A DNA stretch of 11,201 nucleotides from a virus (IMGVR_UViG_2654587569_000008), one strand, 5' to 3'; positions 3,699 to 10,627 are shown, counted from the stretch's first letter. The notes: generated by a model from the sequence alone, not told the origin. A program made the numbers and translations.

Positions 3699-3703
3699 AA
3701 ACC

Positions 3704-4003
3704 ATGAAACAGAAAAATTCTGGCTTTACTGCCAGCGGCCTCTCTCGGCCTGAAATCCGCCCCGGCGATATTTTCAAAGATAAATACGGCGGCACTGTAA
3801 CGATTAAAAGCGTGGTGGGACGGTGTGTTACTTACCGCCGTGATGGGTACGGCTATGACTGCGTGATGCCTGTTTATCAGTTCCGGCGTGATTTTTCTCT
3901 GGTACAGAACGCAACACGCGGTAAGCCCACCAGCAGGGAAAAAGCACGGGAAAATATTAAGAAAATAAAAAGCATGCTCAGCGCATCCAGAGGTAAAAAA
4001 TGA
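3704..4003 (+). CDS. Hypothetical protein (99 aa), basic C-terminus
   Basis: GGAGAA upstream of the ATG; its stop overlaps the repA start (ATGA at 4000-4003). Confidence 0.55.
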   Translation: MKQKNSGFTASGLSRPEIRPGDIFKDKYGGTVTIKSVVGRCVTYRRDGYGYDCVMPVYQFRRDFSLVQNATRGKPTSREKARENIKKIKSMLSASRGKK

Positions 4004-5406
4004 AACTGGCACCGAACGTAAAACTGTTACCGAAAGATAAACACACTGAGGCGGTTATTTTTGCGGGTGATAATGCTCACTCCTTTGCAGAACATTACAT
4101 GATTGCACAGGCCAAAAAAGCAGGCGATCCCATCCCTCCGGTTTACCTGGGCCGTTATCAGTTAAGCGAACTGGACAATTTACAGATTGTTGATGAAGGA
4201 CGATACAGAGCAAAGGTCATACGCGCCGGAAACCTGGACGATATGCAGATGCTGACCATTGCCACCAAATTGGCGATCGCAGGTGTCCGGGAAGCGCGGT
4301 TACTTTCAGAGAATTTCGAACTACTGGAGGACTGGAGCGAGCAACTACCGCGGCTTAAAGAAACCTGGGAACGCGGGGAAAGTCTGGTCATGAATGGTGG
4401 AAAGCGAAAAATCACACTTCCCATCTCATGGGGTTCTGAGGGATTCGACGCGCAGCAAAGCTACGTAATTAAGGGGCTTATTCCGGCTGAATCATTATGC
4501 AGCACCTACGGGGCCAGCGGTTCTTATAAATCGTTCCTGGCTATTTCCTGGTCGTGTCATGTTGCCACAGGTATAGCATGGGGAGGCCGCAGGGTAAGTA
4601 AGGGCGCGGTTATTTATATCGCTGGCGAAGGCAGCATGGGCGTAAAACGCCGCGTTAAGGCGTGGGAGATAACCCACGACAAGGTGGTTACAGATTTGTG
4701 CATCATTAACGCGCCTGTTTTCCCTGCATCGCCTGACTATGTGGAGCAGGTTATCAGAACTGCCGGACTTGTTAAGAGCAGAACGGGCGAAAATGTGCGG
4801 CTGATTGTGATAGACACGCTGGCCCGTTGCTTTGGTGGGAATGATGAAAATGATTCCCGTGATATGGGCGCATTTATCCAGGGGTGTGACGCGATAAAGC
4901 AGGCCACAGGGGCCACGGTGCTGGTGGTTCACCATTCCGGCAAGGATGAAACAAAGGGGGCGCGTGGTTCCAGCGCATTCCGTGCCGCACTGGATGCAGA
5001 GTACCGAATCAGCCGGGAAAATTCAGACGTTACAGCACTGGTGGCGGCGTGTACGAAGATGAAGGACGCAGAGGAGCCAAAAGAAAGCGCATACGACCTT
5101 AAAAGCGTGGAGGTGTTTACCGATACAGATGGCGAAGAGATTGTGTCCATGGTGGTGATTGACGTTCCCCGCGCCCCTGCTGAACTGGAACGCATCGAGG
5201 AGGCCGGGAACAAGACGGAAAATCACACGGCTTTATGGGGTTGTATCCGATCACGTATACAGCATGGTGATAAATGCACGATCCCGCTGCTACGTGACGA
5301 CATGAAAAAGCTGGGATATGACACAAAACACCTTAAACGATGGTTAGCAAAACTGGAAAAAGACGGCGTGATTTGCGTCGATGGGGATGATGTTCACCCA
5401 CTGTAA
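4000..5406 (+). CDS. Replication initiator/helicase, RepA-like RecA-fold ATPase (AAA_25-like)
   Basis: 468 aa. Walker A-like GASGSYKS, Walker B-like LIVIDTLARCF, a VLVVHHSGKDE motif, and a basic C-terminal tail that could be a DNA-binding domain. No primase domain recognised. Followed immediately by an iteron array. Confidence 0.85.
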   Translation: MKLAPNVKLLPKDKHTEAVIFAGDNAHSFAEHYMIAQAKKAGDPIPPVYLGRYQLSELDNLQIVDEGRYRAKVIRAGNLDDMQMLTIATKLAIAGVREARLLSENFELLEDWSEQLPRLKETWERGESLVMNGGKRKITLPISWGSEGFDAQQSYVIKGLIPAESLCSTYGASGSYKSFLAISWSCHVATGIAWGGRRVSKGAVIYIAGEGSMGVKRRVKAWEITHDKVVTDLCIINAPVFPASPDYVEQVIRTAGLVKSRTGENVRLIVIDTLARCFGGNDENDSRDMGAFIQGCDAIKQATGATVLVVHHSGKDETKGARGSSAFRAALDAEYRISRENSDVTALVAACTKMKDAEEPKESAYDLKSVEVFTDTDGEEIVSMVVIDVPRAPAELERIEEAGNKTENHTALWGCIRSRIQHGDKCTIPLLRDDMKKLGYDTKHLKRWLAKLEKDGVICVDGDDVHPL

Positions 5407-5610: not shown

Positions 5611-5860
5611 GACAAGAAAAACCAGAGATAAGACAGCACCAAAATATAAAGCGTTAGACATGACAGAGCACGCCTTAAAGGTGGCAATCAGAACGATAGA
5701 CCGCCACGCCGGGGAAGGATACGCGAAAGCACATCCCGAACTGATAAGCGCATTCATGACCACGACGGCGGCAAATTTTGCCACGCTGACAGAGCGGGAG
5801 ATTGCCGAAGCGGAACAGGTAACAACAATCAACGTTAAAACCGGAGAGGTGGAATCATGA
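5609..5860 (+). CDS. Hypothetical protein (83 aa from the ATG at 5609; ORF open from 5477)
   Basis: AGGTGG just upstream of the ATG at 5609; the longer version would be translated across the iterons. Stop overlaps the ssb start (ATGA). Confidence 0.4.
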   Translation: MTRKTRDKTAPKYKALDMTEHALKVAIRTIDRHAGEGYAKAHPELISAFMTTTAANFATLTEREIAEAEQVTTINVKTGEVES

Positions 5861-6279
5861 CAGCACAGATAGCGGCTTACGGGCGGCTGGTGGCTGACCC
5901 GCAGTTAAAGACCACCAGCAAAGGGACACAAATGGCGATGGCGAGTATGGCAGTTCCCCTGCCGTGCAGCCAGGCAGATGACGGAACGGCGACGATGTGG
6001 TTATCTGTCCGGGCGTTTGGCAGACAGGCCGACGCACTGGCAAAACACCACAAAGGCGAACTCCTGAGCGTGGCGGGTAACATGCAGGTGAGCCAGTGGA
6101 CAGGCCAGAACGGCGAAACGCGGCAGGGCTGGCAGGTTATCGCAGACAGTGTAATCAGTGCCAGAACGGCGCGACCGGGCGGCAAAAAAGGTCAACAGGG
6201 GCAGGCTACTGACGCACTGAACAGGGCAAAACAACAGGCGGGAAATGATGATCCGTACGGGGATAACATACCGTTTTAA
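5857..6279 (+). CDS. ssb: Single-stranded DNA-binding protein (SSB)
   Basis: 140 aa. OB-fold region aligns by eye with E. coli SSB (GRLVADPQL..., W..V..FG..A......KG......G.....W....G), and the C-terminus ends DDPYGDNIPF, matching the SSB acidic tip D-D-D-I-P-F. GGAGAGGTGG RBS. Confidence 0.8.
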   Translation: MTAQIAAYGRLVADPQLKTTSKGTQMAMASMAVPLPCSQADDGTATMWLSVRAFGRQADALAKHHKGELLSVAGNMQVSQWTGQNGETRQGWQVIADSVISARTARPGGKKGQQGQATDALNRAKQQAGNDDPYGDNIPF

Positions 6280-6552: not shown

Positions 6553-7593
6553 ATGAGTGATTTATATTCGCCAGCCATGTTAATACAGGTTGTTAATGCC
6601 GAAGATATTCAATGGCAGATTAATTCTTTATTTATAAACCTGTTTTTTAAGCGAGTCGTTACATTTGAGACGCGGGATATTGCGCTTGATATTATTGACG
6701 ATCCAGACATCCCGATGGCTGCATTTTGTTCCCCTATGGTTGGTAGTAAAGTCTCACGCGATGAAGGCTACGAATCAAAAGTAATTCGCCCTGGCTATAT
6801 GAAGCCAAAAAGTAGTATCGACCCAAATAAAATAGCCGTTCGTCAACCAGGCGTATCACCTGAACAATTCAATGCATATTCATCACGCAGTTTCAAAATA
6901 AAGCGAGCGTTAGTAAGACAAGCGCAGGCAATTCGTGCGCGTATTGAGTGGCTTGCTGTTCAGGCGGTTACAACGGGGAAAAATATCATTGAAGGCGATG
7001 GAATTGAACGTTATGAACTGGACTGGAATATAAAACCACAAAATATTATCACGCAGTCCGGCGGCACGGAGTGGAGCGGTAGAGATTTATCAACATTTGA
7101 TCCAAACGATGACATCGAAGAGTACGCAGAAATCAGCGAAGGTACTACAAATATCATCGTAATGGGCCGCAACGTATGGAAAAAATACCGCGCCTTTAAA
7201 GCAGTAAAAGATTGCCTTGATACTCGACGGGGATCTAATTCCGTTCTTGAAACGGCCCTGAAAAATCTTGGGGATTCTGTAAGCTTCAAGGGTTACGTTG
7301 GCGATGTTGCTATTGTGGTATATAGCGGACGTTATACCGACGAGGACGGCAAAGAAAAATATTTCCTTGATCCTGATTTGATGGTGCTTGGCAACACATC
7401 ATTACAGGGCATCGTTGCCTACGGTGGCATTCAGGATCCTGAGTTAATCAGAATGGGGCTGACTAAAGCCGAACTTGCGCCGAAAAATTACATCGTACCA
7501 GGTGATCCGGCTATTGAATATGTGCAGACGCACAGCGCACCGCAACCAATACCGGCCCGCATCAATCGTTTTGTTACCGTTCGCATTGGTTAA
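6553..7593 (+). CDS. Major capsid protein, phage lambda gpE family
   Basis: 346 aa (lambda gpE is 341). Long blocks match gpE as recalled: NIITQSGGTEWS, KAVKDCLDTRRGSNSVLETA, GDVAIVVYSGRY, MVLGNT, PGYMKPK, PKNYIVPGDPA. AAGAGG RBS. Confidence 0.9.
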   Translation: MSDLYSPAMLIQVVNAEDIQWQINSLFINLFFKRVVTFETRDIALDIIDDPDIPMAAFCSPMVGSKVSRDEGYESKVIRPGYMKPKSSIDPNKIAVRQPGVSPEQFNAYSSRSFKIKRALVRQAQAIRARIEWLAVQAVTTGKNIIEGDGIERYELDWNIKPQNIITQSGGTEWSGRDLSTFDPNDDIEEYAEISEGTTNIIVMGRNVWKKYRAFKAVKDCLDTRRGSNSVLETALKNLGDSVSFKGYVGDVAIVVYSGRYTDEDGKEKYFLDPDLMVLGNTSLQGIVAYGGIQDPELIRMGLTKAELAPKNYIVPGDPAIEYVQTHSAPQPIPARINRFVTVRIG

Positions 7594-7602
7594 GGGGGAG
7601 CA

Positions 7603-7944
7603 ATGGCTACTCATTACACTGAACTCATGGCTGGCACTGAAGCACTGGTTACTACGTTGGGGATATTTTCAGCTAATAAAGGGGTAATTCCTGCATTTAC
7701 GCCACTGATGCAAGAAGATGCAACTGGTGCACTGGTGGTATGGGATGGAACGAGCGCAGGCAAAGCTGTTTATGTTTCCGCTGTACAAATCGATACAGCG
7801 ACAAAAACGCAGGCTCAGGTTTATAAAACCGGCGTCTTAAATGTTGATGCTCTGAACTGGCCTGAGTCTGTAACACAACTATCAGCAAAAGTTGCTGCGT
7901 TTGTTGGCTCAGGTATTTCTGTTCAGCCGCTGGCACGTGTGTGA
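7603..7944 (+). CDS. Head decoration protein, phage lambda gpD family
   Basis: 113 aa (gpD is 110). TPLMQEDATGALVVWDGTSAGKAV against gpD [24 protein letters not shown], and VYKTGVLNVDALNWPES against FYKSGTFRYEDVLWPEA. AAGGGGGAG RBS. Gene order is E then D, the reverse of lambda. Confidence 0.8.
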   Translation: MATHYTELMAGTEALVTTLGIFSANKGVIPAFTPLMQEDATGALVVWDGTSAGKAVYVSAVQIDTATKTQAQVYKTGVLNVDALNWPESVTQLSAKVAAFVGSGISVQPLARV

Positions 7945-7953
7945 GGTACGAGA

Positions 7954-8298
7954 ATGATTGAAAGAGATAGTCAGCTACGAGAGCTATTAGATATCGATGA
8001 CAAAATGAGTTTAAGCGAGCGCCTTGTTGATATGGATCAGGTAGTGGAGCTTACAACCCTTAGCCGTCGCACATTGCTAAACCTTGAGGCTCGCGGAGAG
8101 TTCCCCGAACGCGTACAGGTTACGAAAGGGCGCAAGGCATGGTATTTAAGCGAGGTTGTTGCGTGGATTAACAACATTCCGCGCGCATCAAATTATTGCC
8201 TTGTTCCCACCCCCGAAAAACCTGATGCGGCGTTATGCCTCAAGATTGAACGCGCCAGGCGTAATGCCCTGAAAGGACGCAATAAGTTGATTGGTTGA
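7954..8298 (+). CDS. Second AlpA-family HTH protein inside the late module
   Basis: 114 aa. VVELTTLSRRTLLNLEARGEFPERVQVTKGRKAWYLSEVVAWINN fits the AlpA/excisionase-type HTH. GAGG RBS. Confidence 0.7.
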   Translation: MIERDSQLRELLDIDDKMSLSERLVDMDQVVELTTLSRRTLLNLEARGEFPERVQVTKGRKAWYLSEVVAWINNIPRASNYCLVPTPEKPDAALCLKIERARRNALKGRNKLIG

Positions 8299-8319
8299 TG
8301 AAATTAGGGCCCGTTCTGG

Positions 8320-8400
8320 CTGGCGGGTCCTTTCCGGCGATCCGGCAGGCTACGGGGCGGCGACCTTGCGTATTTTCGCTATTTATGAGCCTTTTCGGGT
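8320..8400. other. Lambda-like cos site (cosQ, cosN, I2-like segment)
   Basis: GGGTCCTTTCCGGCGATCCGGCAGGCTACGGGGCGGCGACCTTGCGTATTTTCGCTATTTATGAGCCTTTTCGGG is nearly identical to the lambda/cosmid cos sequence as recalled. The 12-nt cohesive-end sequence GGGCGGCGACCT is at 8355-8366. Confidence 0.8.
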
Positions 8401-8499
8401 TGGTGGTGGTGGTTTTGTTTTTCGCTCTATCTCTATGAATAAAAAGGGAAAGATAACACCAACACACCAACCTGAAACCTTAACTAAGTGGGGATATTG

Positions 8500-9042
8500 A
8501 TGAAATCGCACCTGATGAACAAAAAAACTATGGCGCAAAGCTGCCGCGTAAGTGCGACAGCGTTCGACAAGTGGGGAGTAACTCCCGTTGAGCGTAAAGG
8601 CCGTGAGGCGTTTTATGATGTTGCTAGCGTGATAGACAATAGGGTTAACAATGCAATTAACCAGCTTACAAACGACAAAGGCGAGATTGATGATGATGAA
8701 CTTTTACGCGTAAGAATCAGATTAATGACGGCCCAGGCGGAAGCGCAGGAACTTAAAAACGAGCGCGAACGCGGCGAGGTGATTGATACAAAGTTTTGCA
8801 TCTACGCGATTTCAAAACTAGCGAGTCAGATTTCATCAATCATGGACAGCCTCCCGCTCACAATGCAAAGGCGCTTTCCCGATATAAGGCCGTATATGCT
8901 GGATGAACTAAAAAGGGAAATAGCCAAAGCATGTAACGCATGTGCAAGACTTGACGAAAACCTGCCACAGATACTGGCTGATTACCTGATGGAAACTACC
9001 GGAAACGCGCCTGAGAAGTTGCTACAGAACAAAGGCGAGTAA
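8500..9042 (+). CDS. Terminase small subunit, lambda Nu1 family
   Basis: About 180 aa from the ATG at 8500 (ORF listed from the GTG at 8488). C-terminal two-thirds align by eye with Nu1 (RLMTAQAEAQELKNERERGEVIDTKFCIYAISKLASQISSIMDSLPLTMQRRFPDI against Nu1 RLTRAQADAQELKNARDSAEVVETAFCTFVLSRIAGEIASILDGLPLSVQRRFPEL). N-terminal DNA-binding region is related but more diverged. About 135 bp downstream of cosN, as in lambda. Confidence 0.85.
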   Translation: MKSHLMNKKTMAQSCRVSATAFDKWGVTPVERKGREAFYDVASVIDNRVNNAINQLTNDKGEIDDDELLRVRIRLMTAQAEAQELKNERERGEVIDTKFCIYAISKLASQISSIMDSLPLTMQRRFPDIRPYMLDELKREIAKACNACARLDENLPQILADYLMETTGNAPEKLLQNKGE

Positions 9043-9115
9043 CCGCCGCCCCGTAACGGGCCATAATTCCAGGAAGGACCCGACGACACCAGGCTATCAG
9101 AACGATGAGGGCACA

Positions 9116-9397
9116 ATGACTGAAGCCGAACTACTGGGATTAATCCGCCGCGTCGTCGGAATCAGCCAGCAGCATGACGAACAGGCCACACAGCCGGACA
9201 GCGTGACCGCTGAAAATTATGTGCGTGTTGTTGCTGAGGTGATGCGCCGTGATGGTATTGAGCTTAACGGCGTGGATATGCGCAACATACGAACAAGAGT
9301 CCTTGAGTTGCTGGCATACCGTCGCCGTTCTCAACAACGGAGGGAGAGCGCGAAAAATACTTACCAGTGGAAGAAGCCGGAACGGTTGCGGCGGTAG
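9116..9397 (+). CDS. Hypothetical protein (93 aa)
   Basis: GAGGG 5 nt upstream of the ATG. Last gene of the late module; no recognisable family. Confidence 0.45.
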   Translation: MTEAELLGLIRRVVGISQQHDEQATQPDSVTAENYVRVVAEVMRRDGIELNGVDMRNIRTRVLELLAYRRRSQQRRESAKNTYQWKKPERLRR

Positions 9398-10412: not shown

Positions 10413-10627
10413 TGTCGATACCGGGATCTCGGTATCGGTTTATCCGTGATCATCCACCAGCTTGATAACGGATAACAGGGAGTCATAACAGTTAAAATTG
10501 TATACTTTTGCAGCAAACATTTTTAGCTACACGTTAAGCTATACGATTTTTGACTTACAAATTTCAACCTTAATTAAATCAAGTAGTTATTGGTGTGTTT
10601 TGAATACTCTCGTGAAAATCCCAAGAA

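Follow-up and report, generated by a model that had tools for sequence, protein, structure and literature searches.

A Nu1-family small terminase beside its own putative cosB in an Escherichia coli phage-inducible chromosomal island

Introduction

How does a chromosomal island that carries a gene for a small terminase, and none for a large one, bring its DNA into phage particles, and where did that small terminase come from? The question is posed by a stretch of DNA of 11,201 nucleotides (the window), in which a Nu1-family protein is encoded directly behind a lambda-type cos site. The modular design of the lambdoid small terminase (TerS), with a DNA-binding domain (DBD) and a segment that binds the large terminase (TerL), is classical, and two routes by which satellites redirect packaging have been studied experimentally, namely SaPI TerS (headful phages) and Rpp (lambdoid cos phages). 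Our literature searches found no experiment on a Nu1-type TerS of a phage-inducible chromosomal island (PICI); reviews of satellite packaging list the carriage of a helper cos, SaPI TerS with Ppi, and Rpp, and no Nu1-type TerS in cos PICIs. A first-pass annotation of this DNA read the protein as a mosaic, with a Nu1-like C-terminal region that still docks onto the large terminase of a helper and a diverged N-terminal region that reads a different DNA site.

The island and its gene content

Gene content and order indicate that the window is an EcCICFT073-like PICI from E. coli. The PICI core set is present (integrase, alpA-type regulator, primase/replicase, capsid homologue and small terminase), as are the further marks of such islands: no other virion or lysis genes, a size of about 10 kb and a specific att site. 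Pfam identifies an integrase (1-1242), AlpA (1742-1948), a RepA-type helicase (AAA_25; 4000-5406), SSB (5857-6279), a lambda gpE-like capsid protein (Phage_cap_E, 2.7e-41; 6553-7593) and a gpD-like decoration protein (HDPD, 2.6e-16; 7603-7944); a DUF4222 protein (3704-4003) is assigned from its open reading frame and Pfam. The layout int-alpA-rep-SSB-capsid-decoration has the same order as EcCICFT073, the helper-dependent induction, replication and packaging of which have been put to the test (PMC6092414, PMC6739421). For the EcCICFT073 capsid homologue no phenotype was found, and loss of the capsid or the decoration gene left lambda interference unrelieved (PMC6092414). That a small terminase belongs to the PICI core components is already known (PMC10085698), and so is the PGAP annotation of terS. 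An ORF scan of the whole window detected no frame of the size of a lambda-type TerL gene.

The RefSeq context of a closely related E. coli genome places the element between tRNA-Pro/yejM and yejO. A 16-nt repeat, TTTTTAGCTACACGTT, lies at 10520-10535 and equals the sequence between tRNA-Pro and int in the related genome; we regard 10520-10535 as a candidate attR core and the right end of the island.

Islands differ in the gene that separates the decoration gene from cos. It encodes here a 114-aa AlpA-like HTH protein (7954-8298; similar to PDB 8C3T, E 5e-10), and in EcCICFT073 (L007 2084-2497) and the O145 island a 137-aa protein, residues 46-119 of which align with the C-terminal portion of profiles for head maturation proteases (phrog_53); this 137-aa protein may be scaffold-like, its position being that of the lambda scaffold Nu3. 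No similarity was found between the two proteins. To the right of the terS cassette lies a conserved 93-aa gene (9116-9397, plus strand; phrog_1561, function unknown), the product of which is 78% identical to its EcCICFT073 counterpart and has no Pfam or NCBIfam match; this gene adjoins the second cos (cos2) in TerS-type and Rpp-type islands alike. The ~1.1 kb from there to the island end holds no convincing ORF. A promoter and terminator scan gave nothing beyond shuffled expectation. Some RefSeq genomes list a 69-aa ORF (8291-8500, plus strand), which overlies cosQ, cosN and cosB, as a hypothetical protein; in other alleles it is unannotated, and it is probably no gene.

The terS gene and its product

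The terS gene (8500..9042, plus strand) encodes a Nu1-family small terminase of 180 aa and has a Shine-Dalgarno sequence, GGGGA, 6-7 nt before its ATG. Its product matches Pfam Phage_Nu1 (PF07471) at 84.4 bits (cut-off 30; E 8.6e-24) over residues 33-148 only, and the PHROG small-terminase family phrog_57 at 5.6e-53 over residues 1-173; NCBIfam has no matching model. The identical 543-bp CDS is annotated as terminase small subunit in RefSeq/PGAP, and the coordinates and identity given by the first-pass annotation were right on all these counts. Like Phage_Nu1 genes, terS stands directly downstream of cosQ-cosN-cosB. Its 3' end is followed by the truncated cos2 and then the 93-aa gene, with no overlapping large-terminase gene, a lack that marks terS as a satellite copy.

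Alignment divides the protein into three parts. Residues 1-62 (8500..8685, plus strand) form, judged by identity to N15 gp1 and to the TerS of the DEC5D prophage and by shared indels, a DBD of the N15 type, presumably a winged helix, with SATAFDKW in the recognition helix region. Residues 63-127 (8686..8880, plus strand), a helical linker and the central segment corresponding to lambda 100-140, are the most conserved across the family, with 51-61% identity to phage TerS proteins; a role of the central segment in oligomerisation comes from the lambda literature (PMC9026076). Residues 128-180 (8881..9039, plus strand) comprise the presumed TerL-docking segment (lambda 141-181) and an island-specific tail, TTGNAPEKLLQNKGE. 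Their identity is 33-51% to phage TerS proteins and 62% to P0123, a TerS from another PICI-like island. The tail runs 12-13 residues past the phage C-termini and is absent from every phage TerS compared. The C-terminal motif LPxxLxxY(L/I), common to the lambda, N15, PhiR5_1 and PhiR12_5 TerS proteins, is kept, and TerL contact has been assigned to the last ~40 residues of TerS (PMC9026076). An AlphaFold2 model from a 28-sequence alignment (pLDDT 56.9, pTM 0.28) is too poor to confirm the folds; its DBD region has a helix-helix-loop-helix pattern, but at pLDDT below 50.

The cos site upstream of terS

Upstream of terS, cos1 begins with the packaging-termination element cosQ, GGGTCCTTTCCGG (8325..8337, plus strand), located by pattern search and by alignment to lambda, PhiR5_1 and EcCICFT073. 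The cosN cohesive end, GGGCGGCGACCT (8355..8366, plus strand), agrees with lambda at 12/12 positions and is preceded by ACG, as in lambda; both cosQ and cosN are identical to those of lambda. The spacer from cosN to R3, TTTTCGCTATTTATGA (8367..8392, plus strand), consists of invariant columns in an alignment of the window, EcCICFT073, N15 and lambda. By blastn, 8323-8401 aligns with lambdoid phage cos regions at 87-89%; outside this cos stretch, nothing in 8300-9100 has a DNA match in phage genomes. From about bp 40 past cosN the cosB is unrelated to that of lambda. The terS ATG lies at bp 146 from cosN, compared with 191 in lambda and 89 in N15, and the 146-bp spacing is fixed in every E. coli allele examined.

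Two elements stand out in this cosB. The putative R3 (8393..8419, plus strand), a presumed binding site with a constant distance to cosN across the relatives, contains (GGT)4 at 8402-8413, that is bp 48-59 from cosN, where the sequence is GGTGGTGGTGGTT; it is the one site in the window with an exact (GGT)n run. The R3 of N15 at the corresponding position is GAGGTTGTTGTT, and that of DEC5D, an intact E. coli lambdoid prophage, is GGTGGTTGTTGTT at bp 48-60. The second element, AACACACCAACCTGAAA (reverse complement TTTCAGGTTGGTGTGTT; 8461..8477, minus strand; bp 107-123 from cosN), is an inverted R2-like element and corresponds to the DEC5D inverted R2, AATACAACAACCTTACG. The two are joined by the inverted repeat I4 (8393-8405/8465-8477, 13 nt, 92% complementary). 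Both are kept in the E. coli alleles and in Kosakonia and Superficieibacter islands at constant distances from cosN, while the surrounding sequence drifts. The DEC5D cosB has R3, inverted R2 and R1, the architecture that Feiss and colleagues described for the Monarch group (PMC4669245). An R1 was not found in the window cosB, nor a remote rR2 inside terS, nor an IHF consensus between the two R-like elements with up to 1 mismatch allowed.

The island R core (GGTGGTGGT / GGTGGTGGTT) occupies the position of the Monarch/N15 core (GGTTGTTGT / GGTTGTTGTT; bp ~48-60 from cosN) but differs from it by two T-to-G changes, and the recognition helix SATAFDKW differs by two residues from the SVQAFDKW of the Monarch/N15 type. 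Taken together, these changes suggest that the DNA specificity may be related but shifted. Discrimination against helpers of the same DBD class may be weak, since the R3 core differs at two positions only. As a separate observation, (ACC)4, the reverse complement of (GGT)4, occurs in the Rpp-type EcCICFT073 (L007 2612-2623) at bp 54-65, within the stretch proposed as R3-PICI.

With moderate confidence, we propose that the product of terS is a satellite small terminase that would bind the island cosB and recruit a helper TerL to cut the lambda-type cosN. The presumed winged helix of the N15/Monarch class would bind this cosB at the (GGT)4 R3-like tract (bp 48-59) together with the inverted R2-like element ~55 bp further; the central helical region would oligomerise, and the C-terminal ~50 residues would dock on the N-terminus of the TerL of a lambdoid helper. 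This TerL would then cut the lambda-type cosN of island concatemers and package the island DNA. The first-pass annotation had also taken the element for a satellite in need of a helper-type large terminase, and its own lambda-identical cosQ and cosN, its full-length TerS and the missing TerL bear that out. We infer DNA binding at the named sites, docking on TerL, the identity of the helper and interference with it from sequence comparison.

The inverted second cos and the Rpp-type islands

Abutting the terS stop codon is a truncated, inverted cos2 (9044..9082, minus strand; inverted repeat I1), made up of a cosQ-like GGGTCCTTCCTGG and bp 1-9 of cosN. Relatives have a complete inverted phage-type cos with a cosB2 of ~177 bp (L016 3728-3942, L018 ~3700-3883, L007 3265-3340), which resembles 21/PhiR5_1 in the Nissle-type island; for the O145 and L008 islands it belongs to a GTCAGATCC-repeat type. 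The window island has probably lost the cos that a helper TerS would read. On the minus strand, the codons of the TerS tail contain a lambda R3-like CGTTTCCG, which was considered as the cosB of cos2 and rejected, because the cos2 of the relatives lies ~177 bp further out with a phage-type cosB of its own, the window copy being a deletion remnant.

EcCICFT073 has rppA (144 aa) in the slot held by terS. The O145 island and EcCICFT073 share 93.8% identity between the capsid gene and about bp 42 past cosN and are unrelated across cosB, terS/rppA and cosB2; identity resumes, at 89.6%, with the core of the second, inverted cos and extends to the end of the 93-aa gene. We also note that the sole unrelated stretch, L016 3075-3867 versus L007 2601-3264 (window ~8397-9043), lies in islands that are otherwise 90-94% identical. 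Bounded by inverted cos cores, the unit of cosB1, terS/rppA and cosB2 looks like an exchangeable packaging-specificity cassette.

The exact rppA position of terS raises another explanation, in which TerS acts as an adaptor or poison in the manner of Rpp: through the DBD interface or the central domain it would form mixed dimers or oligomers with the helper TerS, which would provide the contact to TerL, and would thereby retarget or block the terminase. The N-terminus of RppA matches the same PHROG family (phrog_57, 3.9e-8), and the central segment is the part of TerS best conserved with phage TerS proteins. However, Rpp proteins (139-154 aa) are without a TerL-binding tail and need the TerS of the helper (PMC6739421, PMC9026076), whereas the island TerS has a full C-terminus that includes LPxxLxxYL and is under purifying selection. 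TerS and RppA (L007:2660-3091) moreover give no BLASTP alignment at E<=100, and the DBD class of TerS differs from the lambda/21 type, which makes mimicry of a dimer interface less likely. We consider an Rpp-like mode rather unlikely and prefer a TerS that would itself read the island cosB and contact TerL.

Relatives of TerS and the origin of its domains

Whether the small terminase looks like a mosaic depends on the relative with which it is compared. Against lambda Nu1 it is 37% identical overall (BLASTP). Identity is 33% in the DBD (17/52; lambda 1-68), where there are three indels, one of them an 11-residue deletion, 37% in the linker (lambda 69-99), 51% in lambda 100-140 and 39-41% in lambda 141-181. 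The N/C asymmetry noticed in the first-pass annotation is thus present, with 33% in the DBD and 51% in residues 100-140, but it is weak: Fisher's test of DBD versus C-terminal identity gives p = 0.15 on aligned columns, and significance (p = 0.01) is reached only by scoring indels as mismatches. Conservation is highest in the central residues 100-140, not in the segment that contacts gpA. Good conservation of the gpA-contact region was not borne out, as the last ~40 residues have ~40% identity, near the 32% of lambda versus phage 21 in the TerL-contact segment. Lambda and phage 21 terminase subunits are each specific for their own partner and are not interchangeable.

The DBD lies far from that of lambda, as had been claimed: phmmer with the single TerS sequence found no Nu1 DBD in PDB at E<=10, and a profile of N15-type DBDs has 1J9I, 7LW0 and 6HN7_B as top PDB matches at E~0.1 only. 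Profile-profile alignment by hhalign (82.5% probability, E 9.8e-6) suggests that N15-type DBDs are distantly but specifically related to lambda-type DBDs. The domain is one of a known N15 class rather than a novelty; its identity is 56% to N15 gp1 and 52% to the DEC5D TerS, and every indel relative to lambda is shared. N15 gp1 is also the closest phage protein overall (48%). A tblastn search with residues 1-87 hit only N15, one Enterobacter phage, one Alteromonas phage and Pseudomonas phages, with no lambda- or 21-type phage among them, and the full-length protein matches PhiR12_5 over residues 61-167 only (51%). The C-terminal half of the allelic TerS of island L016, which is 83% (CTD1) and 72% (CTD2) identical to that of the window, finds E. 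coli lambdoid phages by tblastn, the best being PhiR5_1 (57%) and the PhiR12 group (51%). The closest C-terminal domains are of the PhiR12_5/PhiR5_1 type, and nothing points to lambda gpA in particular as the docking partner. In the TerL-contact segment, identity to the phage TerS proteins compared is 38-51%.

Two halves with different phage relatives are what one would see had a helper-matched Nu1 C-terminus been joined to a newly diverged head after capture by the island, the interpretation first given to this gene. The DBD is indeed far less similar than the C-terminus when the comparison is with lambda, PhiR5_1, PhiR12_5 or P0123 (Fisher p 0.01 to <0.0001). Across the family, for which a search of 1.8 billion proteins yielded 150 representatives, many members share the DBD only and others the C-terminus only; P0124 is 60% identical to the window TerS in the DBD versus 28% in the C-terminus, and N15 gp1 is 25-29% identical to lambda in the DBD and 76-80% in the C-terminus. 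These alignments indicate that mosaicism is real across the Nu1 family, and island L008 shows that such joins occur. Its TerS, the above P0123, comes without a TerL; over the C-terminal 82 residues, P0123 and the window protein have 68% identity and the same tail. The P0123 DBD and linker are 79-87% identical to PhiR5_1 (21-type), and the cosB before it is nearly the same DNA as the PhiR5_1 cosB. A DBD and a cosB both of the 21/PhiR5_1 type in L008 imply that the two move as one module, and this co-movement is the strongest computational evidence for the DBD reading the adjacent cosB. The idea that the element recognises a different DNA site holds in this respect, the cosB being unlike that of lambda and the DBD and cosB types changing together between islands.

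For the window protein the picture is different. In DEC5D, where TerL, W and portal genes come next, TerS already has a DBD of the N15 type together with a linker and C-terminus of the PhiR12_5 type, and the window TerS is about evenly diverged from it (DBD 52%, linker 46%, CTD1 54%, CTD2 44% identity). A diverged N-terminus on a Nu1-like C-terminus had been claimed; uniform divergence along the protein, the observation named in advance as refuting it, is what this comparator gives. No phage C-terminus is close enough to be called helper-matched, and the DBD is the conserved part among island alleles. We judge a satellite-specific mosaic improbable; terS seems instead to have descended in full, and long ago, from a Monarch-type terminase gene. 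Lambda Nu1 as the sole reference misleads, and the apparent mosaic vanishes against the right relative.

Variation among island alleles

The cos-terS module occurs in 761/5426 complete E. coli genomes (~14%; counted as present at >=80% query coverage), O157, O145 and Nissle-type genomes included. Among island alleles all TerS segments are under purifying selection, with dN/dS of 0.1-0.26 throughout and of 0.16-0.24 for the window versus the alleles. The dS is uneven, 0.15-0.25 in the DBD versus 0.9-1.4 in residues 128-166. Per-site entropy over 70 cluster representatives of island TerS is 0.22 bits in the DBD, 0.08 bits in the linker, 0.18 bits in CTD1, 0.60 bits in CTD2 and 0.76 bits in the tail. 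The DNA-binding head is fixed in the island lineage, and the presumed TerL-docking end is variable and recombining; by both dS and entropy, the expected pattern of a conserved C-terminus and a diverged N-terminus is reversed here. That terS and cos are functionless leftovers of a decaying prophage, as the truncated cos2 and the missing terL beside terS might suggest, is very improbable given an intact ORF with low dN/dS in every segment, a cosN-to-ATG spacing fixed at 146 bp in a module of 761 genomes, a stable place within a complete set of PICI genes and the standing of the small terminase as a recognised PICI core component (PMC10085698).

Helper range and proposed role of the cassette

Returning to a satellite terminase that would recruit the TerL of a helper, we compared the two presumed contact regions in five phages. 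The identity in TerS 141-181 tracks that in TerL 1-48 (r = 0.87; TerL body, r = 0.58), which fits the C-terminus as a TerL-docking module. The likeliest helpers would have a TerL N-terminus of the PhiR12_5/DEC5D/PhiR5_1 type, the identity of the docking segment there, 44-51%, being a lead and not a result. As the C-terminal 40 residues are 33-51% identical to those of the phage TerS proteins compared, and lambda and 21, with 32%, do not substitute for each other, no single helper can be named.

A wider scheme may be sketched tentatively, and we hold it to be possible but doubtful. The TerS cassette would bypass the helper TerS and take TerL directly; the variable C-terminal ~50 residues and the island tail would set, and keep shifting, the range of TerL proteins used; the DBD/cosB pair would hide the island DNA from the helper TerS; and the cassette would be exchangeable among enterobacterial PICIs. 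If the proposal is true, transfer of the island is predicted to be independent of the helper TerS, and specific residues and bases would decide the helper range. This would bear on the spread of virulence and defence genes by islands and on the engineering of PICI-based delivery particles.

Comparison with known packaging systems

[quoted passage not shown] The window protein has a shorter wing and the 11-residue deletion in helix 3. Unlike lambda, the window is without the lambda R sequences and an overlapping gene A, and its TerS has a C-terminus 12-13 residues longer. N15 gp1 and the Monarch-type TerS of DEC5D share with it the DBD class, and their R3 has the distance from cosN of the putative island R3 and a related GNT-repeat sequence; the inverted R2-like element is shared with the Monarch/DEC5D type, and in linker and C-terminus the protein is closest in kind to DEC5D/PhiR12_5. 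Relative to the TerS proteins of N15, Monarch and DEC5D, the window protein is ~50% diverged throughout and is encoded by a satellite without terL.

The Rpp proteins (RppA/B/C of EcCICFT073-type PICIs) are found in the same islands and in the same slot between cos1 and inverted cos2. They also have a TerS-like winged helix at the N-terminus and the same presumed aim, which is to redirect lambdoid packaging to a PICI-specific cosB. Unlike TerS, they measure 139-154 aa, have a coiled-coil domain for dimerisation and lack a tail that binds TerL, whereas the window protein, at 180 aa, has the full Nu1 C-terminus.

P4 and SaPIbov5 carry cosQ and cosN of the helper type, as does the window; the difference is that its cosB would be island-specific and accompanied by a matching TerS, recognition by the helper TerS not being assumed. 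The pac-type SaPI TerS_S is also a satellite TerS thought to pair with the helper TerL at the satellite's own packaging site. SaPI TerS_S belongs to headful (pac) packaging in Gram-positive hosts and is assisted by Ppi, whereas the window system is of the cos type with no Ppi equivalent identified, and the two are likened by function only. By this analogy the island TerS would be the cos-phage counterpart of SaPI TerS, and its cassette would stand in for that of Rpp. Packaging redirection would then have a third route beside SaPI TerS and Rpp, in which a complete TerS of the Nu1 family works with a cosB of its own; the module is found in ~14% of complete E. coli genomes.
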